Below are positions 2 through 64,000 of a stretch of 64,000 bases of DNA, one piece after another. This DNA is from Parcubacteria bacterium C7867-007. Its GTDB lineage: Bacteria > Patescibacteriota > Minisyncoccia > Phycocordibacterales > Phycocordibacteraceae. Made by a program: the position numbers and the translations under genes. The number at the start of each line of letters is the position of its first letter. The first letter of the stretch is position 1. Location: contig LFCQ01000003.1 of NCBI GenBank assembly GCA_001189195.1, positions 7,059 to 71,058 on the forward strand. The letters are read 5' to 3'. Under the pieces are notes generated by a model. It was not told where the DNA came from, did not search any database, and worked only from the letters and a program-made list of their open reading frames with translations.

Positions 2-601
2 AACACTTCAGGGGCATTGGGTGGTGTTTCTCCTTCTGAATCAGCTCTGAACTTCTACACACAATTCTCTGATCCTGCGAAGACGGTGTATTCCTGGAAC
101 AATGCGCTCCCTGAAGCAAGACAAGCATTTATTTCAGGAGACCTTGCACTCTATGTGGGATTTGCCTCAGAGGCACCCTTCCTCAAGGCATCTAATCCAA
201 ATCTTGATTTTGATATGACGCATGTACCTCAGCCTGCAACGAGTCAGTCTCGTATGACGTACGGCAAGGTATATGCGCTCTCAGTTCCAAAAGCATCTGC
301 TAATCCTAATGGTGCTATAGCAGTGGCACGGGTATTGAGTAGTAAGGAGGAGGGAGGACAGGTTGCACGGGTACTCTCAATGGCACCTGCACAACGAGCA
401 CTCTTGGCACCCTCTGCTACCGACCCGTATCAAGCTATCTACTACCCCGACGCTCTCATTGCCAAGGGTTGGCTATCCCCATCACCTACGAATACGGACA
501 CTATATTTGCCGCTATGATAGGAGATATAACCAGCGGTAGATCTACGGTGCGTGAGGCGCTCAACCGAGCAGGCCAGGCACTTGATTCTGCACTGCAATA
601 A
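2..601 (+). CDS. 5'-truncated extracellular solute-binding protein (ABC transporter substrate-binding, family-1-like); the reading frame is open to the window edge
   Basis: Long ORF in a frame that continues to position 2. The C-terminal region has the composition and architecture of periplasmic solute-binding proteins. No database search was possible. Confidence 0.35.
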   Translation, partial: NTSGALGGVSPSESALNFYTQFSDPAKTVYSWNNALPEARQAFISGDLALYVGFASEAPFLKASNPNLDFDMTHVPQPATSQSRMTYGKVYALSVPKASANPNGAIAVARVLSSKEEGGQVARVLSMAPAQRALLAPSATDPYQAIYYPDALIAKGWLSPSPTNTDTIFAAMIGDITSGRSTVREALNRAGQALDSALQ

Positions 602-609
602 TCTCACCC

Positions 610-867
610 ATGCTTACGAACCCGCTTCAGTTTGACTCACTTCCAGAACTCCTCACTGGGGTATTAAGTGGACTGGTTGAAATTGGAGTGATTGTTCTCA
701 TCATCGCTTTTGTCTGGGTGGGTTTCTCATTTGTCCGTGCGCAGGGAAAGCCAGCCGAACTTGAGAAAGCAAAGGCAGCTTTTCTCTGGACGGTGATTGG
801 TGGCGCCATACTTCTTGGTGCACAGGGAATCGCAACGCTCGTTGAAGCTACGGTAACCGGCCTATGA
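610..867 (+). CDS. small 2-TM pilin-like protein, paralog 1 (TrbC/VirB2-like architecture; weakest member of the array)
   Basis: 85 aa with two hydrophobic helices separated by a short charged loop (AQGKPAELEKAK). It starts 9 bp after the upstream gene and overlaps the next gene by 4 bp (ATGA). Same architecture as the four downstream paralogs. Confidence 0.4.
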   Translation: MLTNPLQFDSLPELLTGVLSGLVEIGVIVLIIAFVWVGFSFVRAQGKPAELEKAKAAFLWTVIGGAILLGAQGIATLVEATVTGL

Positions 868-1334
868 CCTACACACGCAGCACAGGCATACTCCTAACCC
901 TTATAGCGGGCTTATTCCTCTTTGCTGCTACGACGACACAGGCGCAGACATGCACTCCGTCTTGTGGTACAGGAATGATCTGTGTGTATGAAGGATCTAA
1001 TGGATACACTGCAACATGTATAAAGGCTGCAGCTAGTGACGGTACGGTAGATGTGATTGAAGTGACCGCTACCGCAAAGTGTTCAGGAAAGTCTCTTTGT
1101 GCACTGGTGAACAACACTATTATTCCGATAGGTAACAGTATTGTTGGGTTGCTGTTTGCAGTGGCATTCCTCTTGTTTATCTATGGAATGTTTAAATACT
1201 TCTTCCTTAAGGGAGGAGATCCTAAAGCACGTTCAGAGGGCAGGATGTTCATGCTATGGAGTATTATTGCCTTTGCGGTGATGTTCTCCGTATGGGGACT
1301 AGTGAATCTCATCATTAATATAATTCCGACATAG
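864..1334 (+). CDS. secreted Cys-rich domain fused to a 2-TM pilin-like core (paralog 2)
   Basis: Signal peptide followed by a Cys-rich module (CTPSCGTGMICVYEG...CIKAA...CSGKSLC). Then helix 1, the loop GGDPKARSEGR, and helix 2 (SVWGLVNL). The motif is shared with ORFs at 1337, 1882 and 2300. Confidence 0.55.
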   Translation: MTYTRSTGILLTLIAGLFLFAATTTQAQTCTPSCGTGMICVYEGSNGYTATCIKAAASDGTVDVIEVTATAKCSGKSLCALVNNTIIPIGNSIVGLLFAVAFLLFIYGMFKYFFLKGGDPKARSEGRMFMLWSIIAFAVMFSVWGLVNLIINIIPT

Positions 1335-1336
1335 GT

Positions 1337-1783
1337 ATGGGTATACAGAACTTGATTGCGAGCAGTATTAACTTTATTAACAATGTGCTCGTGCCGTTCA
1401 TATTCGCTCTTGCCTTTGCATTCTTCTTGGTGCGGGTGTTCCAGTTCTTCTTTGTTAAAGGAACGGACCCAAAGGCACGGGTAGAGGGAAGGAACTTTAT
1501 TATTGGCTCCATCATTGCTCTCGCGGTAATGGTTTCTGTGTGGGGTCTCGTGAACCTTGTTGCCGGTACCTTCCGTCTAGATCGTAATCAGCCACGACTC
1601 CCAATATTCAATGCGGGAGGAGGTTCATCTGGTGGTTTCTTGGGTGGTTCAGGAAACGATGAAAGGATTCCTGCGGGCACATCAGATTCAGCAATTCCTG
1701 CAGGATCTGCACAAACAAGCCCATCTACTTCAGGTGGTGACAACTGTTTTATTAACAATGATGGTGAAAACATTTGTCTCTAG
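1337..1783 (+). CDS. 2-TM pilin-like protein with Gly/Ser-rich C-terminal tail (paralog 3)
   Basis: Helix 1, the loop KGTDPKARVEGR, and helix 2 (SVWGLVNL), followed by a low-complexity G/S tail ending in a Cys pair. It starts 3 bp after the upstream stop. Confidence 0.55.
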   Translation: MGIQNLIASSINFINNVLVPFIFALAFAFFLVRVFQFFFVKGTDPKARVEGRNFIIGSIIALAVMVSVWGLVNLVAGTFRLDRNQPRLPIFNAGGGSSGGFLGGSGNDERIPAGTSDSAIPAGSAQTSPSTSGGDNCFINNDGENICL

Positions 1784-1881
1784 CACAATAGCGTTGTCCC
1801 CACTCGCGCATTCTTCATATTGACGATGCGTTTGAGGGGTTTATCCTATACCTTGTACCTAATACCTATATTTGTATCTCT

Positions 1882-2235
1882 ATGAAAACACTTGCCTACA
1901 TAGGCGCAGCATCCGCTCTTCCGTTTATTGCGTTTGCGCAGAACGTAAACAGCGTTCAGGATCTCGCGTCGTTCATCATCAGCTTGATCAATAACGTAGC
2001 GGTACCGCTCGTATTTGCGCTCGCATTCATCGTATTTATCTGGGGCGTGTTCCGCTACTTCATTCTTGGTGGTAGCGATCCTAAGAAGCGCGATGAAGGT
2101 CGCCAGCTTATGATCTGGGGCATCGTTGGTTTCGCATTGATGGTTTCTGTGTGGGGTCTCGTACGTATCCTCACCGGTTCTGTGAACCTTAACAATGCAC
2201 CGCTTGAGGTACAGCCAGTTCGTCAGGTTCGTTAA
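1882..2235 (+). CDS. 2-TM pilin-like protein with signal peptide (paralog 4; closest to the TrbC/VirB2 / T4SS-pilin architecture)
   Basis: Signal peptide (…AFAQN), helix 1, the loop GGSDPKKRDEGRQ, and helix 2 (MVSVWGLVRIL). Followed by a rho-independent terminator. Confidence 0.6.
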   Translation: MKTLAYIGAASALPFIAFAQNVNSVQDLASFIISLINNVAVPLVFALAFIVFIWGVFRYFILGGSDPKKRDEGRQLMIWGIVGFALMVSVWGLVRILTGSVNLNNAPLEVQPVRQVR

Positions 2236-2258
2236 GCAAGGTTTCATTCTCCACTAAG

Positions 2259-2290
2259 AAAGCCGCTCCTTAGGAGCGGCTTTCTGCTAT
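2259..2290 (+). terminator. rho-independent terminator after pilin-like paralog 4
   Basis: Inverted repeat agccgctcc/ggagcggct with a 3-nt loop, followed by a T-rich tract. Confidence 0.6.
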
Positions 2291-2299
2291 CATAAACAC

Positions 2300-2551
2300 A
2301 TGGACGCATTTCATACTTTCCTGGACAATGTGCAGCGTGAGATCCTAACCCCTATTGTCGCGGTTATTGCACTCGCTGCTTTCATTCTCTTTATATACGG
2401 TATGGTGAAGTTTATATACAATGCTGGTGATGCAGCAAAACGAGCAGAGGGGCAGAAGCAGATGCTGTATGGAATCATCGGACTCGCTATTATGTTTGGT
2501 GCAAATGCACTTGTGAACCTTCTTCAAGGCACGGTATCGTCTCTATTCTAA
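2300..2551 (+). CDS. 2-TM pilin-like protein (paralog 5)
   Basis: 83 aa with helix 1, the loop NAGDAAKRAEGQKQ, and helix 2 (GANALVNLL). Same architecture as the neighbouring paralogs. Confidence 0.5.
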   Translation: MDAFHTFLDNVQREILTPIVAVIALAAFILFIYGMVKFIYNAGDAAKRAEGQKQMLYGIIGLAIMFGANALVNLLQGTVSSLF

Positions 2552-2567
2552 TTAATGTATGTGAAAA

Positions 2568-2590
2568 GGCCCGGAAGTTTCCTTCCGGGC
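2568..2590. terminator. GC-rich hairpin between convergent genes (functions mainly as terminator for the minus-strand gene 2601-3275)
   Basis: ggcccggaag/cttccgggcc perfect 10-bp stem. The T-run (ttttc) lies on the minus-strand side. Confidence 0.55.
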
Positions 2591-2600
2591 CCGTGTTCCA

Positions 2601-3275
2601 CTAGGGAACAGTGATGACGGCGATGTTCACCAGCATCGGATCTTGTTCTTCAGCACTTCCGCGCTGAAATCCGACAGCAGTACATCGCTTCTGCGTTGTC
2701 CATATCGAGCGCTCGCCGGTCTCTGCATCTTCGCAGTGCAGAATGAACGGCGTGTTCTCTGGCTTCTTCATCCCACAGTATTCGGGGAATCGAAACCAGA
2801 ATGGCTCCTCTCCCCGCACACGAATGGGTACGACCGGCTGCTCGTTGCACACGGGCGGTCCAGGGGGTGCAGGCACCTCCTGAACTTCCTCTTCAGGTTC
2901 AGCTTGCGCTTGTTCCTGAGGAGGAGTGCGGGGTGCTGAGTGCGTTGGTGTTTGATCCACAAACAACAGTTGAAACAAGAACCAACCGACAACACCGATG
3001 GCCAGGATGGCCAGGATGAGCAGTGCAGTTCGTAGCGGAGGCCCCATGCCCGTTTTGGACGCCGGAGACTTCGCAGGTTTCACCGCCATAGTTGTCGGTG
3101 TGACGACAACGACCTTTGGTTGAGACTGATTGGTGTTTCCACCCTTCAATCTCCGAGCAGGCCCTTTCTTTTTCAATCTCCGCAGGAGCGTCACACCAAA
3201 GGCAATGACGATCAAAACGAAGATAACCCACTCCCAAAAGATGATTGATTTCAGGAAGTTAAGCCACTCAGGCAT
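2601..3275 (-). CDS. Pro-rich single-pass membrane protein, function unknown
   Basis: The start is reassigned to the ATG at 3275, which has the RBS aagggg 6 nt upstream; the longer ORF to 3353 has no RBS. One TM helix, a Pro/Gln/Glu-rich linker, and a C-terminal domain containing cysteines. Confidence 0.45.
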   Translation of the reverse strand: MPEWLNFLKSIIFWEWVIFVLIVIAFGVTLLRRLKKKGPARRLKGGNTNQSQPKVVVVTPTTMAVKPAKSPASKTGMGPPLRTALLILAILAIGVVGWFLFQLLFVDQTPTHSAPRTPPQEQAQAEPEEEVQEVPAPPGPPVCNEQPVVPIRVRGEEPFWFRFPEYCGMKKPENTPFILHCEDAETGERSIWTTQKRCTAVGFQRGSAEEQDPMLVNIAVITVP

Positions 3276-4626
3276 CGGTTTTCCCCTTAGGTTCTGGAGT
3301 CTTATTCTTCCCGAGCACACCCTCGAGCATGTCGTCGACGGCGCCTCGGACATCGATACCGAGAATCAACTTAGCGTTGTCACCGATGATTCTCTCAGCG
3401 GCTTCAGCACCATAGATCTCTCGACCCTCAAGTCCAAGGGTATTGGCTTCGTACTTCTTGCCGTCAGCGATTGCTGTACGGCGGGCGAGTTCTACAGCTG
3501 CCGCAGCGGCACCGGCCTTGGTCGTCACATAAGCGTCGGCGTCGGCTTTGGTGTTGCTGGCTAGTTGGGCTGCGAGGGCCTTACCGATGCCAGTGAGTTC
3601 CTTGCTCAGGTCGTGGCTCAGATCAGGGGCGAGGAGTGTGATCTCCAATATTTTTATACCCCAGTCATTGGTTAGTGTTTCAAGTTCTTCCTCAACCAAT
3701 TCACTGATTGTGATCAAGTCCTTGACCACGCGGCCAATTGGTCGCTGCAGGAATTGCTGCGTTACGGCGCGTGACCATGTGTCGTTTAGTTGTCGGTTAG
3801 CATAGGCAAGCATATCTTCTGGAGTGTCACCTTCCATTGCCATGGCAAAGGACATGACATCTTCGATCTTGTAGCGGACCGTACCAGTGACTGTGGTGGT
3901 CATCTGGATGTTGAGTGGGCCGAGCTCCAAGCCTTTTCTACCAGGCTCAGGTGTACCGCTAATTGGACGGAATGGCCGCACCATGCCCGGAGGCAGGTCA
4001 ACTTTGTCGTCTCCGTGGAAAACCTCCTCAGGTTCACCAGGGATTTGGATTTGCTGAGCTGCGCGAGGCAGCCGAACCATACCCATCCAGGGCACAAGCC
4101 GGAACGTCAGACCAACTTTCGGTTGCCGAATAGGTCTATCGAAGAAAGTGATACTTACGAGATCTTTATATCCGACCTTGTCGATCGAGAAAAGAGTTTG
4201 CAAGATTGCGCCCCCGACGACGAGGTACCACGGATGGCCGAAGAAAGACATGACGATCGCAAGCAGGGCCAGTGCAGCATAGTTGAGGATGATGACTAGT
4301 TTGTAGAGTGCCTTGTCAACTTTCACTGCAGACTTACTCTTACGAGGTTTGTCGGCAGCTCCAGTCTCGGAGGTTTCTTCAGAGTCTTCATCCTGCTCAG
4401 CATCCGTCTCACGTTGCTGGCGACGCTTCTCGAGATGTTCTCGGAACTTGCGCGCCAGAAACTGAGACAAAGTCCTCACGGACTTACCAAGCCATGCGAG
4501 GAAGCCGTCACGAAGACGGGCGATTTCCGATTGGGGCTTTGCCTGGGAAATGACCCAGACAGATACCGCAATAAAGATCCACGGCCCGACTTGAGCCAGG
4601 ACCTGAATCCAATTATTGGTTTCCAT
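3268..4626 (-). CDS. SPFH/Band-7 (stomatin/prohibitin/HflKC-like) membrane protein
   Basis: N-terminal TM segments followed by an SPFH-like core and an Ala-rich coiled-coil tail (…AAQLASNTKADADAYVTTKAGAAAAAVELARR…). The N-terminal region is acidic. Confidence 0.7.
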   Translation of the reverse strand: METNNWIQVLAQVGPWIFIAVSVWVISQAKPQSEIARLRDGFLAWLGKSVRTLSQFLARKFREHLEKRRQQRETDAEQDEDSEETSETGAADKPRKSKSAVKVDKALYKLVIILNYAALALLAIVMSFFGHPWYLVVGGAILQTLFSIDKVGYKDLVSITFFDRPIRQPKVGLTFRLVPWMGMVRLPRAAQQIQIPGEPEEVFHGDDKVDLPPGMVRPFRPISGTPEPGRKGLELGPLNIQMTTTVTGTVRYKIEDVMSFAMAMEGDTPEDMLAYANRQLNDTWSRAVTQQFLQRPIGRVVKDLITISELVEEELETLTNDWGIKILEITLLAPDLSHDLSKELTGIGKALAAQLASNTKADADAYVTTKAGAAAAAVELARRTAIADGKKYEANTLGLEGREIYGAEAAERIIGDNAKLILGIDVRGAVDDMLEGVLGKNKTPEPKGKTDA

Positions 4627-57578: not shown

Positions 57579-58562
57579 ATGCGTGGCACAGTAGTCGGAG
57601 TATTGCGTGGTGGCCCTTCTCGAGAGTATGAAGTCTCGCTTGCTAGTGGTCATGCAATCATCGCGAATCTCCCTAAAGAGCACTTCACGGTGCGTGATAT
57701 TTATATAGACAAGCAAGGAGTATGGCATGAGCGTGGTCGTCCTGTTACACCGCATCGTGCACTTCATTCCTTAGATGTTGTAGTGATTGGTTTGCATGGT
57801 GAATATGGAGAAGATGGTGAAGTGCAGAAGCTTTTGGAAAAGAGTGGAGTTCCCTATACCGGTTCAGATTCATTCTCCTCATTTGTTGCAATGCATAAAG
57901 TGCTCTCCAAAGAGAGAGCTAAACAAGCTGGACTCAAAACTCCCAACTACTACTACATTGAAGAAAGTACCGCTCCCCATCACATGGAGCATATGCTTCG
58001 TGAGGTGGTACGTACTTGGCCACAACCCGTAGTGGTGAAACCAACACGCTGGGGATCTTCTGTGGGTGTGACTATGACGACGGGATACGCACCTCTCCAC
58101 ACCGCAGTAACAGGATTATTGGCGCAAGGTGCAGGAGGAGTACTTGTTGAGGAATATGTAAAGGGAACTGAAGCCACTGCAGGAGTGGTGGAAGAGATGC
58201 GGGGAGAGAAACTATACGCACTTCCTCCTGTTGAAATCATTCCTCCTTCCTCAGACTTCTTCTCATACGAAGCTAAGTACTCGGGTATCTCCAAAGAAGT
58301 ATGCCCGGGACGCTTTGATAAGCAGGTACAGGCAGAACTAGAGCGGCAGGCACGGGTTATGCATGATGCACTGGGTCTTCGCCACTACTCCCGATCAGAC
58401 TTCATTGTCACCCCCAAAGGTATCTACTACCTGGAGACCAACTCTCTCCCTGGTCTCACCAATGAATCACTCCTTCTTTCCTCCTTGTCGGCTGTGGGGA
58501 TCTCCTTTAGTGATTTCCTATCCCATATAGTTGCCCTTGCACGAGCAGGCAAGAAACGGTAA
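57579..58562 (+). CDS. ddl: D-alanine--D-alanine ligase
   Basis: Start reassigned to MRGTVVGVLRGGPSREYEVSL. ATP-grasp motifs (…VVVKPTRWGSSVGV…, EEYVKGTE…, RSDFIV…YYLETNSLPGLT). Confidence 0.85.
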   Translation: MRGTVVGVLRGGPSREYEVSLASGHAIIANLPKEHFTVRDIYIDKQGVWHERGRPVTPHRALHSLDVVVIGLHGEYGEDGEVQKLLEKSGVPYTGSDSFSSFVAMHKVLSKERAKQAGLKTPNYYYIEESTAPHHMEHMLREVVRTWPQPVVVKPTRWGSSVGVTMTTGYAPLHTAVTGLLAQGAGGVLVEEYVKGTEATAGVVEEMRGEKLYALPPVEIIPPSSDFFSYEAKYSGISKEVCPGRFDKQVQAELERQARVMHDALGLRHYSRSDFIVTPKGIYYLETNSLPGLTNESLLLSSLSAVGISFSDFLSHIVALARAGKKR

Positions 58563-58599
58563 AGTTTCCCCTATAGAAACGGCTTTTAGTCGTTTCTAT

Positions 58600-58645
58600 G
58601 CGGGCCGTTAGCTCAGTTGGTAGAGCGCTTCATTTGCAATGAATA
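58600..58645 (+). pseudogene. truncated tRNA: 5' half of a tRNA-Ala(TGC)-like gene (acceptor 5' strand, D-arm, anticodon arm), no T-arm or 3' acceptor strand
   Basis: GCGGGCCGTTAGCTCAGTTGGTAGAGCGCTTCATTTGCAATGAA. A canonical D-arm and a 7-nt anticodon loop TTTGCAA are present. The downstream sequence runs straight into the ORF at 58656 with no T-loop. Confidence 0.4.
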
Positions 58646-58655
58646 AGTCAACAGG

Positions 58656-59111
58656 ATGAAAATTCATCTCGGGAAGCAACAATACCTTAAGTTACTAACT
58701 TTCATCTTTGGGTTTGCCTTGGTTATATTGGGTTTTTTCGTTGACAACCTTAAGGAATTCTCCGGTGTTGCAAGGATATTCTTTCCAGATGCATATTACC
58801 TAAACGAAGCGTTGGTGCATTTGGATTCCAAGAAAGATGTTCATGTCGGCGATCCGTCGTTCAAGTATGTGATTAAGCGGTGTGCGCCACCAGACTTTGA
58901 TTCGACGTTAGTAACGAGCTTTACAAAGGGCACTACAACTTATTACGTGACCTCGATGAGTCGTAAACCAGATTTTGGGATTCACGCACGGATTGGTGAG
59001 CTGACATCAGAGAGACCCATCTGCAACTCTCAAGCTCTTGAGGTGTCCGAGGACAAGATTTTGCTCTACGTCGGTCTACTTATTTCAATTGTGGGTTTTC
59101 TGATTAAGTAA
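58656..59111 (+). CDS. hypothetical membrane protein (N- and C-terminal TM helices)
   Basis: 151 aa in a low-GC region. No motif recognised. Confidence 0.4.
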   Translation: MKIHLGKQQYLKLLTFIFGFALVILGFFVDNLKEFSGVARIFFPDAYYLNEALVHLDSKKDVHVGDPSFKYVIKRCAPPDFDSTLVTSFTKGTTTYYVTSMSRKPDFGIHARIGELTSERPICNSQALEVSEDKILLYVGLLISIVGFLIK

Positions 59112-59221
59112 TTCCCTGCGAGGAGTGTGTGTAGCAGCTAATCATCATCACCAATGCCAGCGACAGCACCCCATAATTTGAGCTTCTTGCAGAAGCTCAT
59201 CTCAACTGGTTATAGTTAGGT

Positions 59222-59254
59222 ACACCCAATAAAACTTCAGTTTGTCACGGCGGC
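59222..59254 (+). repeat. direct repeat R1 (33 nt; partner at 60242-60274, 29 of 33 identical)
   Basis: aCACCCAATAAAAcTTCagTTTGTCACGGCGGC versus cCACCCAATAAAAaTTCgaTTTGTCACGGCGGC. Confidence 0.6.
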
Positions 59255-59284
59255 TCCTATCCCGTTTCCGCCACATATACAGAT

Positions 59285-59998
59285 ATGGAAATAAATCGAC
59301 AGGATTCCGAAAATTCGCATAAGGATAGCTACTCCTTCTGGCCCTTTGTAAGGGAGCGGCTATTTTCAATTTGTACTGCCTTACATGCGTGGGGGATCGG
59401 CCGATCTTTTGATAAGGTGATCGTGATTCTCACACTTGCTATTGCACTCATTAGCTTGGCTCTTTCCTATCAATCAGTCTTACTGGCTCGAGAGGCCGTT
59501 GATCTGTCAACGTCTCCACAGATTAATTACTATCTTCAGACGGAAGATTTGAATAGTGGTGAATATACTTTCGGCATTGAGAATAACGGCGTTATTTCTG
59601 TTCGCGATCTGTCTGTAAGTTACGTTACAACGGACATATACAAACGAGACTGCGACATAAAGAGAACACAAATAGTAATCTGCGGCGGCAGTTCTGCAGG
59701 TATGTCTAATGCTGTTCCTTCAAAAAAGAGCAAACTACAGCCGGGAGAAACTTTTACGTTTAAATTACTAACTGGTACATCACCCGACATGATCGTCGCG
59801 GTTTCTGTAGTGACTAATTACACTCGCAATGTGGACGGGCGCAGGGCGTCTGACCGAGTCACCTATTTCATTGATAACCACAGCGTGTATACGTTAGAAG
59901 CGATAAGGGATATACCAAGTATGCAAGCGTATATTGCTGCATTCCGCCAATTTTCAGCAGACAGCACGCTTGGAAATGAAAAGATCTATTGGCAATGA
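59285..59998 (+). CDS. hypothetical membrane-anchored protein
   Basis: 237 aa in a low-GC region, with one TM helix (VIVILTLAIALISLAL). Confidence 0.4.
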   Translation: MEINRQDSENSHKDSYSFWPFVRERLFSICTALHAWGIGRSFDKVIVILTLAIALISLALSYQSVLLAREAVDLSTSPQINYYLQTEDLNSGEYTFGIENNGVISVRDLSVSYVTTDIYKRDCDIKRTQIVICGGSSAGMSNAVPSKKSKLQPGETFTFKLLTGTSPDMIVAVSVVTNYTRNVDGRRASDRVTYFIDNHSVYTLEAIRDIPSMQAYIAAFRQFSADSTLGNEKIYWQ

Positions 59999-60026
59999 TT
60001 TAGACATTCCTACGCAGACTCATTCC

Positions 60027-60082
60027 CATACCAATCCTTCTTCAACCGCGTCACCCTCCGCTCCCAGTTGATGCGCCGTATG
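60027..60082 (+). repeat. direct repeat R2 (56 nt; partner at 61923-61978, 1 mismatch)
   Basis: CATACCAATCCTTCTTCAACCGCgTCACCCTCCGCTCCCAGTTGATGCGCCGTATG is repeated with a single g/t difference. Confidence 0.7.
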
Positions 60083-60241
60083 GCTGCATGGCCCGGATTT
60101 GGAGGACGCTCTGGGGGCGTAGGAGGGATGAACGGAGGAAGTCGATCGAGAATGAGCGGGTCCTGTACGCACTTGTCCATAATTCCCGTCACCAGTTCTG
60201 AAATCTGCTCTCGCTCTGTTCGAACGTGTGCATGACTCGGT

Positions 60242-60274
60242 CCACCCAATAAAAATTCGATTTGTCACGGCGGC
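60242..60274 (+). repeat. direct repeat R1' (copy of R1) followed by a terminator-like hairpin
   Basis: See R1. It is followed at 60268-60290 by cggccc-ttg-ggccg and a T-rich tract. Confidence 0.6.
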
Positions 60275-60518
60275 CCTTGGGCCGCTTTGTGCGTTATATA
60301 AGAACTCCACACGTACCGAGCATCTATTGAACTGCGTGTGAACAAGCGCAAACGACCATTTCTGACGCTAAAAGGCCGCAGTACTTGACTTTATATATGA
60401 ACCGGAAGTATTATTTCAATGTCAGTTCACGCAGATAGCTATTCTGATGAATAAACAAAGGGTTTTATACGGGACGCCCTAAAAAGAAATAGTCTCGAAT
60501 TATAAAAGTACTTTCTAC

Positions 60519-61100
60519 ATGAGCACTCTCACACCTCAGCAGATGAAGGAAATGATTCAGGCATCGGAACAAGCTGTTTCCGGTATGCAGGATGAAAGCC
60601 TCAAGCGTGCAGCATTTGAAGCGATCTTGTCCCGCTTGTTGAGCGGCGATACCCCGAGTCCAACTGGACCCGTTCGAAAGCAAAAAAAAGCGGCCAGTAA
60701 GCGAAAACCAGGAACAACTAACCCTGGCTCAGGTCGTGTTCGTGCAGCAACACGTATTTCATCCCTAGAGCTCGATGCCGCCCAACTGAAGGCGCTTAAA
60801 GAATTCTATGACCACTATGCTCCCGATGGGCAAGAGGAGGCCGTATTCACACTCGCTTACTTTGCACACGATAAACTAGCAATGAAGCAGTTTCAGGATG
60901 TCGATCTACACCGGCTCTATACGACCCTACTATCATTGAAACCAACAACCAAACCACCCTCGATGTCCGCTGAAGAGGTGACACGCGCTTCCCGTTGGCT
61001 GGTTGCCCCTAGTCGAAAGAAGCAGTGGCTCAAAAGTGTCGGGGAAGGAATATTTGAAGTCAGTCCGCACGGAATGCTGCGTATGACCTACGACGCATAA
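60519..61100 (+). CDS. hypothetical protein (cassette gene A), basic central linker
   Basis: 193 aa, 7 bp upstream of gene B. The cassette is flanked by the R2 and R2' repeats. Confidence 0.45.
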   Translation: MSTLTPQQMKEMIQASEQAVSGMQDESLKRAAFEAILSRLLSGDTPSPTGPVRKQKKAASKRKPGTTNPGSGRVRAATRISSLELDAAQLKALKEFYDHYAPDGQEEAVFTLAYFAHDKLAMKQFQDVDLHRLYTTLLSLKPTTKPPSMSAEEVTRASRWLVAPSRKKQWLKSVGEGIFEVSPHGMLRMTYDA

Positions 61101-61107
61101 GCTCTCG

Positions 61108-61845
61108 ATGATCAATTCTCCGATCGAATTCTTGCAGGCTGTCGATGCCGAATTGAAGAACGCTGTTGAGCGCGCGCGTGCCATTCTTTGGTATGCCAGT
61201 TCGAGAAGCCAAAGCGAAGGGCTCACCACAGCAGAAATTACGGACGTAATGGAGACTGCTGGTCATGCCAAGCAGAACAGAGCGCGGCTTGATACGCTTC
61301 TCACTCGGGATAAGAGATACATAAACCGAGTTCCAGGTCGCTCACAATGGCGACTCAGTGCCGTTGGAAAGCGTGAGCTTGATCCTGTGTATAGAACAGT
61401 TTCTCCGACACCGGTAACGATTGTTGTAACCGACAGCGTCCTACCTCGTGCTCTTGTTACAGGAACACGCGGTTATATTGAGAAGGTTACTCACCAAATC
61501 AATGGGTCGTACGACTGCGGACTGTATGATGCGTGCAGTGTGATGTGCAGGAGACTCTTGGAAACTCTGATTATCGAGGTATATGAACAAGCTGGCAGGA
61601 CCGATGAGATAAAAGGGGTCGACGGGAACTTCTTAATGTTCTCCGGCCTACTGGACGTTTTCGAAAAAGACAAAACGTTCACCCTCAGTCGAAATGGGAC
61701 CAAGGGATTGAGTGACTTCAAGTCTCTAGGTGACCTATCCGCACACAGTCGTCGATACAATGCCCTAAAGGCTGATATTGATCGAGTGCAAAGCGGTCTT
61801 CGTGTTGCGGTCGAAGAACTATTGCATCTAGCTAAACTCAAGTAA
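61108..61845 (+). CDS. hypothetical protein (cassette gene B): predicted winged-helix N-terminus and DUF4145/HEPN-like helical C-terminus
   Basis: N-terminal …LTTAEITDVMETAGHAKQNRARLDTLLTRDKRYINRV… (wHTH-like). C-terminal …CRRLLETLIIEVYEQ…FKSLGDLSAHSRRYN… resembles the (R/K)xLGNxAAH pattern of DUF4145/HEPN-type domains. This is inference without a database search. Confidence 0.45.
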   Translation: MINSPIEFLQAVDAELKNAVERARAILWYASSRSQSEGLTTAEITDVMETAGHAKQNRARLDTLLTRDKRYINRVPGRSQWRLSAVGKRELDPVYRTVSPTPVTIVVTDSVLPRALVTGTRGYIEKVTHQINGSYDCGLYDACSVMCRRLLETLIIEVYEQAGRTDEIKGVDGNFLMFSGLLDVFEKDKTFTLSRNGTKGLSDFKSLGDLSAHSRRYNALKADIDRVQSGLRVAVEELLHLAKLK

Positions 61846-61922
61846 GAGGTACGTGAAAGACGTCTCTACCACTTGAACTGCATCTCTATCGGGATTTAGG
61901 CAGCCTCTCCTCTATCCTTCTC

Positions 61923-61978
61923 ATACCAATCCTTCTTCAACCGCTTCACCCTCCGCTCCCAGTTGATGCGCCGTATGT
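61923..61978 (+). repeat. direct repeat R2' (copy of R2)
   Basis: See R2. Confidence 0.7.
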
Positions 61979-62022
61979 CATAGTTATTCAAACAACTCAC
62001 CCACACTGACACAAACACCAAT

Positions 62023-62481
62023 TTGTTAAAACCAAAATACTATTGTATAAAGTACTCGGCACAGGGGAGAGCTGCAATGATTGAAATAGAGCACGGCTTC
62101 ATTTCCTTCAAAGGACTTGAAGTACTACCGAACACCAAGATATACCTTGACCCCGAACCGCAAGGGAGAGCATTCCGGACGGGTCGTGTGGGTCGTCCAC
62201 GGAAGTCGGAAGTCCTTCATCCACCACACTTCTACATGTCGTTCGTGGTGGAGTGCAACGGTCAGACTGAGCGTATTGAGCACGAGGAGTTGATTCCCTT
62301 CACCTTCTTCCCGCTCACACACGATGTCTGTATCTGCATCACATACCGTAGCCAGACCGTGTTCTTTGCACTCTCTATCAGCAAGAAGCAAAGTCTCAAA
62401 GTGAAAGGGGAGGAAGACATCTTCCTTGAGGTTGCTTTGTCCTGGGAACAGGCAAAGAACTTCTTTCAGGTGATTCGCTAA
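62023..62481 (+). CDS. hypothetical protein
   Basis: 152-aa ORF (the start may be the internal Met at 62077), followed by a strong terminator. Confidence 0.35.
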   Translation: MLKPKYYCIKYSAQGRAAMIEIEHGFISFKGLEVLPNTKIYLDPEPQGRAFRTGRVGRPRKSEVLHPPHFYMSFVVECNGQTERIEHEELIPFTFFPLTHDVCICITYRSQTVFFALSISKKQSLKVKGEEDIFLEVALSWEQAKNFFQVIR

Positions 62482-62508
62482 CTATCGTGCGAGCACTAAT
62501 ACTGCAAC

Positions 62509-62540
62509 GGCGCCCCCTCATCGAGGGGCGCTGTTTTGTT
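62509..62540. terminator. bidirectional rho-independent terminator between convergent genes
   Basis: gcgcccc-ctcatcga-ggggcgc followed by tgttttgtttc. Confidence 0.65.
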
Positions 62541-62551
62541 TCTATTACAGG

Positions 62552-63676
62552 CTACGCACGCTTGAATATAAAGCGTGAAAGCACAAGGAAACTTTCAATA
62601 GCGATAATGAGTGCAGCAATTGCTTGAGCCAAAATGTACCAAACTCCTAGATAGTGTACGAGAATAAATACTATCCCTGTGTTTAGAACAAGGTTAATAG
62701 ACGCAACGAGCAAGTGAAGGGGAACCTGTATTGCCGTTGATTTCTGATGCTTGTAGTTAAAGGTCCAGTATTTATGAAGCAAGAAGTTCACAACACCTGA
62801 TGTCACAAACGCCACAACTGATGAAAGCAAATACCAGAGGTGTGAGATATCGGTGAGGATATAGAGAACTGCAATATTCACCAGTACACTTATCGAACCA
62901 GTGGTGAGAAAGCGGAGTGCCTTAGGAACCTCTTTGCCCATCGGTGCGCTGTGTATACCTAAACGGAAGAATACGATTGCTAACAGGCAATACAAGCCAT
63001 GTCTGGCACGTATCTTCTTTCCTTCTGTGACAGTGCGAGGATGATAGCTGATGGGTACCTGCGTAACGGTACCTGCGTGCTGGAGTATGTACGTCATCTC
63101 AATAGCATCAAAGACGAAGTCGTCACTCGGTGCTGCCAAGAGCGCAGGTATACGTTCACGAGGAAAGACCTTGTAGCAGCAAGGAACATCTTTAAATGAA
63201 CTTTTAAAGGCAAGATTATAGAACGATGATACTAACCTGCCTCCATAGAACAACATTCTATTTCGGTGAGCATCCTCTTCGGCAAGGGTACGGTATCCAA
63301 ATACCGTATCAACTCTCCCTTCAATGATTGGTGCAAGAAGTGATGGGTATTGTCCAGGATCAATCTCAAGGTCTGCATCTTGAATGATGCAGTATTCACC
63401 CGTTGCATGACGGAGTCCTTCTTTAACGGCACCACCTTTGCCTAGGTTCAGTGGAAGGTACACAACCTGCACAGTATTCTCTACACTACCAGATGAGAGT
63501 TTCCTTAATGCAACATGCGTCTCTTCTTTAGAGCCATCATCAACAACAATGATCTCTTTGGACCACCCAGAAGGAAGTTCAGTTGCAGTTACACGCTCAA
63601 CAACCTGGACAATAGTCTCAGCCTCGTTGAAACAAGGGATGATAACGCTTAGAAGTCTTTCCTCAGTCCTACTCAT
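62552..63676 (-). CDS. family-2 glycosyltransferase fused to a C-terminal GtrA-like 4-TM domain (polyprenol-phosphate sugar synthase-like)
   Basis: N-terminal GT-A fold (SVIIPCFNEAETIV…DDGSKEE…IQDADLE, DXD) and a C-terminal GtrA-like membrane domain. The start is reassigned to the ATG at 63676. Confidence 0.75.
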   Translation of the reverse strand: MSRTEERLLSVIIPCFNEAETIVQVVERVTATELPSGWSKEIIVVDDGSKEETHVALRKLSSGSVENTVQVVYLPLNLGKGGAVKEGLRHATGEYCIIQDADLEIDPGQYPSLLAPIIEGRVDTVFGYRTLAEEDAHRNRMLFYGGRLVSSFYNLAFKSSFKDVPCCYKVFPRERIPALLAAPSDDFVFDAIEMTYILQHAGTVTQVPISYHPRTVTEGKKIRARHGLYCLLAIVFFRLGIHSAPMGKEVPKALRFLTTGSISVLVNIAVLYILTDISHLWYLLSSVVAFVTSGVVNFLLHKYWTFNYKHQKSTAIQVPLHLLVASINLVLNTGIVFILVHYLGVWYILAQAIAALIIAIESFLVLSRFIFKRA

Positions 63677-64000
63677 AGAATTGTACAAGGGCATACTTGC
63701 CAGAACGTAGCAGCGCCCGCTTCTCACAAGATGCAACGCCTTCAGTGAAGTCTGTCATATCAAGAAGGCCATACTGGAGATCGTGCGCCTTTCCGTAGTC
63801 AGCAAAGGCAACACAATCTTTAGTTTCAAGTACGTCACGTACTTCGTGGTATCGAGCAAACCACTGATCTGCCGCTGCACCATCATACAAGGCAACGTTG
63901 CCATCCTTTCGAGCCACATACGTTGAACGATTTCCATAGGCACGCACCAGATTAGCCTCACCGTCTGGATTGGCAAGAACCATACTCTGTGGAGGTATGA
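63669..64000 (-). CDS. 3' portion of a gene whose frame stays open past the window end; hypothetical, possibly a sugar-modifying enzyme given the GT2 neighbour
   Basis: The reading frame remains open upstream of the Met at 63983, so the gene begins outside the window. No secure motif. Confidence 0.3.
   Translation of the reverse strand, partial: IPPQSMVLANPDGEANLVRAYGNRSTYVARKDGNVALYDGAAADQWFARYHEVRDVLETKDCVAFADYGKAHDLQYGLLDMTDFTEGVASCEKRALLRSGKYALVQFYE

Follow-up and report, generated by a model that had tools for sequence, protein, structure and literature searches.

The window analysed here, the whole 64-kb stretch, contains the beginning of a tRNA-Ala gene that breaks off and runs into a region of small genes and direct repeats, and we were interested whether the break and the repeats both reflect insertion of mobile DNA. 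The break itself is described by two features:

58602 to 58643, plus strand: 5' part of tRNA-Ala(UGC), the first 42 nt with acceptor 5' strand, D-arm and anticodon arm
58643 to 58644, no strand: assembly join at which 45 nt are absent, gatgtcgcaggttcgaatcctgtacggtccacaacaaaactttaa, corresponding to the tRNA 3' part and 14 nt of trailer

With 24.1 bits, the match of 58602-58643 to the Rfam tRNA model fell short of the gathering score (29), and the acceptor 3' side was unpaired. ARAGORN called no tRNA at this position and no tRNA-Ala in the entire 64-kb window, and no T-arm motif was detected nearby, in agreement with the preliminary description, according to which T-arm and 3' acceptor strand are missing from the window letters. 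In the real genome, the gene extends another 32 nt past 58643. An independent contig (L001, JGI 3300001199) showed 0 mismatches to the window over 5359 nt and 46 nt and contains 45 nt more at the junction, which complete the tRNA, with 100% identity on both sides; its positions 5-46 are identical to the 42-nt tRNA part of the window, and ARAGORN found a complete tRNA-Ala(tgc) at 5-78. Of 30 related loci, 25 likewise have a tRNA-Ala(tgc) after ddl. The cut recurs at the identical base in the co-assembled sister genome C7867-008 (L003), and the last mismatch between window and L003 is found at 58544, exactly 99 nt before the cut, corresponding to k-1 for k=100, the maximum k of IDBA_ud. Therefore, from the intact tRNA in L001, the identical cut in L003 and the k-1 spacing, the half tRNA is an assembly artefact and not biology, and the tRNA gene is intact; the 5' half initially described as ending at about 58645 persists as a partial Rfam match, not as a property of the organism, and the tRNA is not disrupted. 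The C7867 genomes are IDBA_ud assemblies made with default settings (PMC4508563), and the half tRNA arose when two contigs were joined across a node common to the co-occurring sister species, with the 45 nt being dropped. The k-1 argument accounts only in part for the position of the right edge of the gap. Destruction of the tRNA by a mobile element, with an integron-like array downstream whose integrase was lost or lies elsewhere, would suit the window letters as given, which hold the 5' half alone; it is ruled out by the intact gene in the otherwise identical L001, and the k-1 signature shared with the co-assembled genome also speaks against it. The clean appearance of the 5' half, and nothing more, could point to a functional split, permuted or intron-containing tRNA with its 3' half elsewhere. 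No 3' half or T-arm was found in the window or a further 8 kb of L001, Rfam gave no group I or group II intron match, and the contiguous gene in L001 rules this reading out, so that its probability is practically nil.

The region from 58644 to 62555 is a 3.9-kb strain-specific accessory islet, made up of cassettes of foreign origin, following the intact tRNA-Ala(UGC) of a Kaiserbacteria-like Parcubacteria genome, with these features:

58656 to 59111, plus strand: ORF151, cargo of the tRNA-proximal unit, with hydrophobic N- and C-termini and a GC content of 0.425
59219 to 59267, plus strand: R1 copy a (D2a), GGTACACC and a tRNA-Ala-type trailer (CAATAAAACTTCAGTTTGTCACGGCGGC), a displaced copy of tRNA 3' end with trailer
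59285 to 59998, plus strand: ORF237, cargo of the second unit, with a GC content of 0.436
60010 to 60249, minus strand: orfS, a small conserved gene of 52-79 aa depending on the start codon, marking the distal end of a cassette unit
60020 to 60082, plus strand: R2 copy a (D1a), spanning ~19 C-terminal codons and the stop of the intact orfS
60218 to 60245, plus strand: pseudo-tRNA 3' end ('core prime'), GTTCGAAC-N13-GGTCCAC, 28 nt, T-loop-like and acceptor-like
60239 to 60287, plus strand: R1 copy b (D2b), GGTCCACC and a tRNA-Ala-type trailer
60519 to 61100, plus strand: ORF193, which opens a portable cargo module of two genes
61108 to 61845, plus strand: ORF245, the second module gene, with ~140 aa at the C-terminus belonging to a large DUF4145-related family
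61915 to 61977, plus strand: R2 copy b (D1b), 3'-end remnant (~25 codons) of a second orfS allele, the rest of the gene being gone
62077 to 62481, plus strand: ORF134, the last accessory gene
62506 to 62535, plus strand: strong hairpin resembling an intrinsic terminator, located where the variable stretch ends on the right
62556 to 63736, minus strand: GT2/GtrA glycosyltransferase gene, the conserved right flank, where L003 homology resumes

The GC content of the islet (0.473) is not significantly low compared with 0.486 +/- 0.012 in equal-sized windows, 17% of which are as low, and the low-GC stretch reported earlier did not hold up; only ORF151 and ORF237 are AT-rich. Its composition is nevertheless atypical, as its tetranucleotide distance is 0.215 and that of the other windows at most 0.203. 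The islet was obtained with 100% identity and in the same order in three assemblies from at least two pipelines, with L001 spanning all of it and L002 (Logan SRR2043728) corresponding to 60053-61975. Two coexisting strain alleles of a single-cassette locus might have been chained via shared repeats during assembly, since the same assembly is demonstrably mis-joined 45 nt from the islet and both ends of L002 lie within R2. Against such a chimera stand this agreement, the lack, at the orfS/R1b/ORF193 junction, of any exact repeat of sufficient length to mislead a de Bruijn graph, an exact stretch of at most ~14 nt shared by R1a and R1b, and a two-unit layout in the independent lineages L085/L086/L088/L090, L092 and L093, making it very unlikely.

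Both repeat pairs of the preliminary description were recovered and are confined to two copies each in the 64 kb, with 0 expected by chance. The 56-nt repeat forms part of a 63-nt pair (R2, 95% identity) with one mismatch in the 56-nt core; it brackets the two-gene module 60519-61845 and encodes the C-terminus of the minus-strand ORF at 60010-60249, both as described. However, this ORF is not a remnant: it is a complete member of the small conserved orfS family, and the true remnant is 61915-61977. Members share the C-terminal motif NPGHxAIRRINWERRVxRLKKDWYG and form only 6 protein clusters among 5.8 billion, each of 61-104 aa and without Pfam match; an AF2 prediction gave two helices (pTM 0.31). 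The gene is known only from the tRNA-Ala locus of a few Parcubacteria, all copies with enough flank being located downstream of tRNA-Ala. R2 is the 3' end of orfS, the single gene shared by such units, and R2b matches the 3' end of the L083 orfS with 97.6% identity; the high nucleotide identity of R2 is largely explained by the invariant protein motif. Comparable remnants in L004 and L085 have similar yet not identical cut points, which are not accounted for by insertion at the tRNA alone.

The 33-nt repeat was found as a 49-nt pair (R1) of 80% identity with 3 differences in a 32-nt core, located 30 and 245 nt upstream of gene starts as stated before. R1 represents displaced copies of the last 8 nt of tRNA-Ala with the native trailer: R1b is 88% identical to L004 11097-11138, the last 9 nt of the L004 tRNA-Ala with its trailer, and in L004 and L094, a trailer of the R1a type begins right after the real tRNA-Ala. 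The GTCACGGCNGCC trailer was detected after real tRNA-Ala genes (L004, L094, L014, L085, L047) and also after pseudo-tRNA ends (window, L085, L093). The R1a core (GGTACACC) carries one mismatch, and in the R1b trailer, a 7-bp G+C hairpin (60270-60285) precedes TTTGTG. What the tRNA and the distal sites have in common is short, just GGTCCAC(C) and an 80%-identical trailer. The pseudo-tRNA end lies in tRNA orientation and overlaps the 5' end of orfS (codons GP..VRT), and the same 28-nt layout was observed at every orfS-like gene (L014, L019, L045, L047, L083, L085, L087, L093 twice, L094). As it is 6 nt longer than its real tRNA counterpart, it is an old derivative travelling with orfS and not a fresh duplication. 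Its codons GTT CGA for Val-Arg are invariant, weakly hinting at a DNA-level site.

Comparison with relatives supported a recombination or insertion hotspot at tRNA-Ala with serially stacked unrelated cassettes between repeat families, as originally proposed, and an islet in this position is of a familiar kind. Homology to L003 ends at 58643 and restarts at 62556; between the same flanks, the island of L003 is a different one of 5.85 kb that encodes AbiV and a large serine recombinase, and other relatives carry other cargo, repeatedly of defence or toxin type (DUF4145, HEPN_AbiV, AAA_15/21 ATPase). A unit consists of trailer, cargo, orfS and pseudo-tRNA end; in at least 8 related contigs, one (L087, L014, L094) or two (L085/L090/L088, L092 (= L083), L093, L047) such units follow tRNA-Ala, with different cargo in every contig. 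Between window and L083, the orfS module is 96% identical with both flanks unrelated, and the right breakpoint (60245) lies within GGTCC|AC of the pseudo-tRNA end. Related genomes in which the gene order is identical, the tRNA intact and the repeats absent had been named as evidence against a hotspot; the tRNA proved intact, and the repeats are present. An integron-like array was not supported, with neither an IntI-type tyrosine recombinase nor attC-like inverted repeats being detected. Although repeats do separate the cassettes, they correspond to tRNA trailer and gene 3' end, and the combination of a destroyed tRNA with such an array is extremely improbable.

The islet thus consists of three stacked units, for which we slightly favour an origin by serial insertion at the tRNA 3' end. 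Unit 0 comprises the tRNA, a short trailer and ORF151, unit A the R1a trailer, ORF237, orfS and the pseudo-tRNA end, and unit B the R1b trailer, ORF193-ORF245 and the orfS remnant (R2b), with ORF134 after it. Units may have entered by recombination at the boundary of tRNA 3' end (GGTCCAC) and trailer, every new insertion moving the previous trailer and unit away from the tRNA. As earlier units would be pushed outward, the newest is expected nearest the tRNA, and older ones would have decayed later, with orfS being reduced to R2b. None of the units contains its own recombinase, and a motif search found none anywhere in the 64-kb window; the likeliest agent would be a recombinase supplied in trans, with the units acting as cis-mobilizable or decayed elements. 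Candidate enzymes may be the large serine recombinases located at exactly tRNA-Ala in sister genomes. Homologs of the L003 enzyme lie next to this tRNA gene or overlap it in L029, L055 and L095, and L011 retains a remnant. The far ends of the recombinase islands in L003 and L095 showed neither orfS nor a pseudo-tRNA end, and the link between recombinase and units is therefore circumstantial; an empty site, an excised circle or an identical unit at a second location was not found.

Alternatively, the slot from tRNA-Ala to orfS could be a replacement or addition islet without a dedicated site-specific system, a possibility to be taken seriously yet rather unlikely. DNA taken up from related strains would be exchanged by ordinary homologous, possibly homology-facilitated illegitimate, recombination, and unequal crossover of a donor pseudo-tRNA end and trailer with the real tRNA end and trailer of the recipient would give tandem units; R1 and R2 would then be boundaries because they are the sole stretches similar enough between diverged alleles. 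Indeed, R2 is 84-98% identical across lineages compared with 51-57% for the orfS body and is the best available homology, with its conservation coming mostly from the protein motif, the R1 copies are just 80% alike with homology continuing ~45 nt past the 8-nt core, R2 duplications without a tRNA-like core occur in L085 and L004, the islet lacks a recombinase, and the crossover product would look the same as site-specific insertion. However, homologies of 8-56 nt are very short for RecA-type exchange, GGTCCAC is the exact site of the breakpoints in three window copies and again when the window is compared with L083, and bona fide recombinase-borne islands occupy the same tRNA in sister genomes; the GTT CGA invariance also argues weakly for a DNA-level site.

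With serial insertion as the preferred explanation, the units are best read as cassettes without integrase, for which Dehalococcoides ssrA islands, cis-mobilizable elements (CIMEs) and tycheposons provide parallels. In a streamlined genome, the ssrA islands are arranged in tandem immediately after a tRNA-like gene, and the 3' end of this gene recurs as a short direct repeat at the boundaries of each island, with a further conserved motif adjoining; DsiB, a serine recombinase of ~540 aa, adjoins ssrA on the reverse strand, and 15 islands without integration module were read as cis-mobilizable elements (McMurdie et al., 2011, PMC3146451). Tandem units after a tRNA gene, repeats of the gene 3' end with an adjoining conserved motif, a streamlined genome and units without integration module are also found in the window, and in layout the DsiB arrangement recurs in L003, L029, L055, L095 and, at tmRNA, in L096. 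In contrast, the target here is tRNA-Ala(UGC), the units measure 0.6-2 kb and are thus far smaller than the islands with their several kb to tens of kb, a clean 20-bp repeat is replaced by 8 nt and a diverged trailer, orfS has no counterpart in Dehalococcoides, and the islet of the window genome lacks a recombinase. For CIMEs, mobilization by an incoming element was shown experimentally, according to the account of 2004 work in PMC3146451; as far as described there, they share with the window cargo blocks with att-like repeats, without integrase or transfer genes, in tandem at a conserved gene 3' end, whereas the 'att' copies of the window are weakly conserved and its units known from sequence alone. 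Prochlorococcus islands are likewise tRNA/tmRNA-adjacent and hypervariable in a streamlined genome, with scattered partial tRNAs and degenerate remnants, older elements moved distally by successive integrations and defence- or niche-related cargo. The defining property of tycheposons is an integrase of their own, in most cases a tyrosine recombinase and in a minority of such elements a large serine recombinase, often together with replication genes (Hackl et al., bioRxiv 10.1101/2020.12.28.424599); the window units have neither. Integron arrays are similar in their one-directional, small 1-2-gene units without own recombinase and in recurring boundary sequences, but the window lacks IntI, attI and attC-type imperfect inverted repeats, and its boundaries are tRNA trailer and protein-coding 3' end.

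Regarding the cargo, ORF151 had no homologs in 95 related loci. At E <= 1e-3, the ORF245 family, which we take to be HEPN-type, has 955 representative clusters; when 32 members were sampled, 18 matched Pfam DUF4145 (best E 4.7e-6), and ORF245 itself just with E 0.096. For ORF193, ~15 homologs of roughly 50% identity were found, one of them in an Alphaproteobacteria MAG, and a gene of ~250 aa follows in all three loci examined (L099, L100, L101). In L100, 224 nt separate this pair from a serine recombinase of 546 aa, which overlaps tRNA-Asn.

The window derives from a Parcubacteria (Paceibacterota, Kaiserbacteria-like) metagenome-assembled genome, and its D-Ala-D-Ala ligase shares 89% identity with that of 'Parcubacteria bacterium C7867-008' (sister genome, locus L003) and 83% with that of RYN_391 (L004). 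Locally, uvrC and ddl precede a tRNA fragment; six small ORFs come after it, followed by a minus-strand GT2/GtrA glycosyltransferase gene. Homology to L003 stops at 58643 and restarts at 62556, in the 3' end of the glycosyltransferase gene, with unrelated DNA between the conserved flanks; the place of the window islet is taken by a different 5.85-kb island in L003 and by a 1.1-kb unit in L004. Comparison across relatives thus bears out the hotspot beside a tRNA gene proposed in the preliminary description, and both of its repeat families are real, each with two copies and none elsewhere in the 64 kb. Repeats and cassettes mark an accretion hotspot adjacent to tRNA-Ala, a known kind of structure. 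The features concerned are as follows.

58602-58643: first 42 nt of a tRNA-Ala(UGC) gene
58644-62555: islet with ORF151, ORF237, orfS, ORF193, ORF245 and ORF134, in this order
59219-59267 and 60239-60287: repeat R1 (R1a and R1b), 49 nt, 80% identity
60010-60249, minus strand: orfS
60020-60082 and 61915-61977: repeat R2 (R2a and R2b), 63 nt, 95% identity, 56-nt core with 1 mismatch
60218-60245, oriented like the tRNA: 28-nt element resembling a tRNA 3' end (pseudo-tRNA end)

The tRNA-Ala fragment, which has no 3' acceptor strand, scored 24.1 bits with Rfam, below the gathering score; ARAGORN called no tRNA at this position and no other tRNA-Ala in the window, and the 3' half was absent from the window by T-arm pattern, ARAGORN and Rfam (E <= 10). 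Other assemblies were therefore compared. A JGI metagenome contig of 37.4 kb (L001, sample 3300001199), with encoded proteins exactly as in the window, was identical to it over 58642-64000 (100% over 5359 nt, 0 mismatches) and over 58598-58643, with 45 extra nt, gatgtcgcaggttcgaatcctgtacggtccacaacaaaactttaa, between both identical blocks. With these 45 nt, ARAGORN predicted a normal tRNA-Ala(tgc) in L001, and a G3:U70 pair was recognized by inspection. The tRNA described as truncated is therefore complete at this very position in a contig otherwise identical to the window, which places an intact tRNA gene at one edge of the islet, the window copy being cut by an assembly join. In L003, with approximately 80% DNA identity to the window, the tRNA-Ala is cut at the identical base (...gcaatgaa|) and followed by unrelated DNA. 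A de Bruijn contig stops exactly k-1 bases past the last genome-specific base when it meets sequence common to another genome, and the default largest k of IDBA_ud is 100. The last difference between window and L003 upstream of the cut lies at 58544 and the cut follows 58643, a gap of 99 nt and hence k-1. The C7867 genomes were co-assembled from a single groundwater metagenome using the default settings of IDBA_ud v1.1.0 (PMC4508563), and from the shared breakpoint we infer that the window belongs to this assembly. The 'upstream' contigs of C7867-007 and C7867-008 would have ended at one base, and each would then have been joined directly to its own 'downstream' contig. Sequence comparison thus indicates that the half tRNA in the window is an assembly artefact and that the truncation is not a real feature. 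Of the 30 related loci scanned, 25 have a tRNA-Ala(UGC) after ddl, and the lack of any other tRNA-Ala in the window fits a gene that was not truly lost. The k-1 argument does not fully account for where the gap ends on the right, 14 nt beyond the tRNA; this edge may be a further branch point in the population. A split or intron-containing tRNA was rejected, as no downstream 3' half, T-arm or Rfam intron family was found and the gene is contiguous in L001.

A published Parcubacteria genome would thus lack half of an essential tRNA gene solely through a de Bruijn graph join, and C7867-008 likewise (L003 11016-11063, LFCR01000004.1). Because of this equal artefactual truncation, the C-terminus of the adjacent L003 recombinase is probably mis-assembled as well (494 aa versus about 540 in relatives); a search for an independent assembly of the L003 junction found none, and the recombinase protein was found only in the NCBI record. 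Any feature ending k-1 bases past the last strain-specific base is to be distrusted, and tRNA counts in such genomes are affected. In the interval from the ddl stop codon to the tRNA, a strong hairpin was detected at 58568-58604 (-20.4 kcal/mol, z = -4.8), the 3' arm of which overlaps the first bases of the tRNA-Ala; it is identical in L003 and therefore belonged to the shared node at which the assembly broke. L001 begins 4 nt ahead of the tRNA and both ends of a Logan contig (L002, SRR2043728) lie within the two R2 copies, contig breaks at repeats which indicate that the locus fragments assemblies.

R1b shares 88% identity with L004 11097-11138, comprising the last 9 nt of the intact L004 tRNA-Ala and the adjoining downstream sequence, and continues with a 7-bp G+C hairpin and TTTGTG. 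A trailer of the same type, GGTCCACC...(T/A)GTCACGGCNGCC, comes immediately after the real tRNA-Ala in L004 and in the related loci L094, L014, L085 and L047, and this sharing with real tRNA-Ala genes identifies R1, at the level of sequence, as the terminal GGTCCACC of the tRNA together with its native trailer. The window tRNA itself has, in the true genome, a different, shorter trailer leading straight into ORF151, and two trailers of the native type lie 0.6 and 1.6 kb further downstream; such displaced trailers are the pattern expected from repeated insertion of DNA between tRNA end and trailer. The putative distal repeat of the tRNA 3' end consists of GGT(C/A)CACC and a homologous trailer, at 59219 and 60239, and its exact tRNA-derived part measures just 7-8 nt; many relatives have longer direct copies of this end of tRNA-Ala (13-55 nt) downstream of the tRNA.

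R2 corresponds to the last ~19 codons and the stop of orfS. This gene had been regarded as an ORF remnant, a view not upheld by its homologs of 61-104 aa, which share an invariant C-terminal motif (NPGHxAIRRINWERRVxRLKKDWYG). They form only six clusters among 5.8 billion proteins, none with a Pfam domain, and all copies with enough flank lie downstream of tRNA-Ala and convergent with it. R2b is a true orfS remnant of about 25 codons with 97.6% identity to the allele of the related locus L083, and similar remnants in L004 and L085 end at the same point to within about 14 nt. Between lineages, R2 nucleotide identity is 0.84-0.98, versus 0.51-0.57 for the rest of orfS. The invariant peptide largely accounts for this, and conservation of R2 as DNA was mostly rejected because synonymous sites vary: a single codon is used at only 7 of 19 invariant degenerate codons. 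The R2 pattern gave 0 matches in viral contigs and was found in only 5 metagenome contigs, all with the same kind of locus. An AF2 model of orfS (two helices and a Pro-rich linker, pTM 0.31) is too low in confidence for a fold search or functional inference. A split C-terminal piece of an SSV-type integrase gene was also considered for orfS and rejected, because a stop codon in the same frame lies directly ahead of it and the opposite end of the unit has no N-terminal partner.

Every orfS-like gene starts inside a 28-nt element, GTTCGAAC-N13-GGTCCAC, oriented like the tRNA. This pseudo-tRNA end occurs in the window and in L014, L019, L045, L047, L083, L085, L087, L093 (twice) and L094, and looks like the T-loop and 3' acceptor strand of tRNA-Ala (GTTCGAATCCTGTACGGTCCAC) lengthened by six bases. 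These extra bases mark it, as far as sequence can tell, as an old derivative travelling with orfS and not as a fresh duplication. A native tRNA trailer follows it in the window, in L085 and in one L093 copy. The orfS module is 96% identical between window and L083, with unrelated DNA on either side, and the right-hand breakpoint lies inside GGTCC|AC. The second orfS copy of L093 (4337-4600) is a frameshifted pseudogene which has kept the 28-nt element and a native-type trailer.

The general plan is a tRNA-Ala followed by trailer, cargo, orfS and pseudo-tRNA end, once or twice, and then core genes.

Units found downstream of tRNA-Ala
One unit: L087 (DUF4145 cargo); L014; L094 (286-aa protein and DUF4145)
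Two units: L085/L086/L088/L090; L092 (= L083); L093 (AAA_15/21 ATPase cargo, one orfS frameshifted); L047
Window: ORF151; R1a, ORF237, orfS, pseudo-tRNA end; R1b, ORF193-ORF245, R2b remnant; ORF134, strong terminator

The window thus holds an array of three units with R1-type bounds and no recombinase, and two-unit arrays are present in L085, L092 and L093. None of the window cargo genes recurs among the other ~95 loci. An assembly chimera as the origin of the tandem order was rejected, since exact matches between R1a and R1b do not exceed about 14 bases, the sequence is 100% identical in three assemblies, and the layout recurs in independent lineages.

The best-supported explanation, which we consider somewhat probable from the arrangement of the sequence, is serial insertion at the junction of tRNA-Ala 3' end and trailer. 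Insertion events would have occurred there one after another, each moving the existing trailer and unit farther from the tRNA, and decay of the older units would have followed, leaving an array without recombinase comparable to cis-mobilizable elements; the favoured candidate for the agent would be a trans-acting recombinase. The main rival is ordinary homologous or unequal recombination between the sole well-conserved stretches, namely the tRNA end with its trailer and the orfS 3' end, a process that would yield the same product and is a possible, if rather unlikely, origin. The closest counterparts described are the ssrA genomic islands of Dehalococcoides, which are tandem, have 20-bp repeats of the 3' end of ssrA as boundaries and are accompanied by a ~540-aa serine recombinase beside the gene on the reverse strand, 15 islands being without an integration module (PMC3146451). 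The logic of pushing distally and decaying is shared with the tycheposon islands at tRNA and tmRNA genes of Prochlorococcus (bioRxiv 10.1101/2020.12.28.424599). A tycheposon, however, has its own site-specific integrase beside the tRNA, and 58644-62555 holds no such gene. In agreement with the preliminary description, no recombinase domain was found in any of the six islet ORFs, which sets the islet apart from a self-mobile island; regex searches, which are not exhaustive, gave no tyrosine-recombinase motif in the window or in the about 95 loci, and Phage_integrase was absent from the 25 families listed, out of 138, in a Pfam summary of neighbouring ORFs. The likeness to an integron, on the other hand, could not be sustained. 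Integrons have IntI and attI beside the array and end each cassette with attC (imperfect inverted repeats, RYYYAAC...GTTRRRY), whereas neither the window nor the related loci gave a Phage_integrase signature, and the boundaries in the window are direct repeats without attC-like symmetry, R2 being coding sequence and R1 a tRNA trailer.

A candidate recombinase is provided by the L003 island, which encodes a large serine recombinase (Resolvase, Recombinase, Zn_ribbon_recom) on the opposite strand, abutting the tRNA, together with a HEPN_AbiV protein. Related recombinases hold the equal position in L029, L055 and L095, so that these sister islands, like L003, contain an integrase; their genes are read in antisense and approach or enter the tRNA. 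The family comprises more than 1270 proteins at E <= 1e-20, with members overlapping tmRNA in L096-L098 and a more distant member overlapping tRNA-Asn in L100.

Serine recombinases next to tRNA or tmRNA genes
L003, 11046-12530
L029, 3019-4683
L055, 4707-5075
L095, 10001-11626
L096, 10001-11641
L100, 4137-5777
L011, 11141-11293: C-terminal remnant

These proteins are usually 520-560 aa long, and from the antisense strand the 3' ends of their genes approach or extend into the 3' part of tRNA-Ala(UGC), tmRNA or tRNA-Asn, with overlap seen in L029, L095, L096 and L100. They lie at the end nearest the tRNA in small defence-type islands, whose cargo includes AbiV, DUF2326/SMEK_N and an ORF193-like module, and their layout matches that of DsiB of the Dehalococcoides ssrA islands. 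The far sides of the recombinase islands examined carry neither orfS nor pseudo-tRNA end, and the link between recombinases and orfS units is therefore circumstantial. A conserved GGTTCGATAGCC near the recombinase 3' ends was considered as a tRNA-derived att site and rejected; it is also found in a tmRNA-associated copy and is therefore merely coding sequence of the conserved GYRT motif.

With regard to composition, the islet had been described as low in GC, which did not hold for the whole of 58644-62555: its GC content of 0.473 compares with 0.486 +/- 0.012, a value that low being reached by 17% of windows of equal size. Among the ORFs, AT-richness is confined to ORF151 and ORF237; the tetranucleotide composition of the islet is more deviant than that of every other window of the same size. 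Pfam, PHROGs and PADLOC gave no significant match for the window ORFs, and the islet had no BLASTN match in phage and plasmid collections. ORF193 has about 15 homologs of roughly 50% identity, one of them in an Alphaproteobacteria MAG, and is followed by a gene of about 250 aa in 3 of 3 loci examined; in L100 such a gene pair lies beside the tRNA-overlapping serine recombinase. The ORF245 family comprises 955 representative clusters, and 18 of 32 sampled members match DUF4145 (best E 4.7e-6), ORF245 itself remaining below threshold (E 0.096, 13.2 bits versus a cut-off of 23.1). Profile-profile comparisons of ORF245 and L004 ORF310 with the DUF4145 proteins of relatives, and of the ORF245 family with the AF_1680-labelled partner gene, were not significant, and a PDB profile search with the family gave no match. 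From the DUF4145, AbiV and AAA_15/21 cargo in relatives, the tRNA-Ala slot appears to collect defence- or toxin-type genes, and by analogy the window's own cargo may have such a role.

To our knowledge, little is known about gene exchange among Candidate Phyla Radiation bacteria. The locus shows a conserved tRNA-Ala hotspot for very small cassettes, several of them HEPN/Abi-like, with orfS and its pseudo-tRNA end as a lineage-specific twist, as well as a large serine recombinase family whose genes run into tRNA or tmRNA genes. A bolder reading, which we regard as improbable, is that orfS and the 28-nt element define a Parcubacteria-specific family of ~1-2-kb integrase-less mobile cassettes stacked at tRNA-Ala by a trans-acting recombinase, for example a tRNA-overlapping large serine recombinase. 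This would amount to an integron-like cassette collection on a tRNA gene, shuffling HEPN-type defence genes among tiny-genome episymbionts, and to a compact exchange system in streamlined symbionts; if the cassettes are not mobilized in trans, the locus is one more tRNA-adjacent variable islet.

Partial copies of tRNA-Ala were also observed in other relatives. In L005, L009, L041, L044 and L050, the tRNA is followed, about 55 nt downstream, by a 16-nt inverted copy of its nt 56-71, and in all of these except L044, where it was not seen, a 13-18-nt direct copy of nt 58-75 lies about 170 nt downstream (L009 11123-11138 and 11241-11258, for example), an arrangement conserved across these relatives. 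In L057 (4433-4487) and L070 (1904-1958, 2561-2588), partial copies directly follow the intact gene, the second and third copies covering nt 21-75 at 91% and nt 48-75 at 100% identity, and look like classical att-type duplications. Finally, in L099/L100 the recombinase and ORF193-like module lie between inverted duplicate copies of a response regulator/histidine kinase block (about 300-3750 and 8170-11600 in L099), an arrangement that may reflect a genuine inverted repeat or a fold-back in the assembly.
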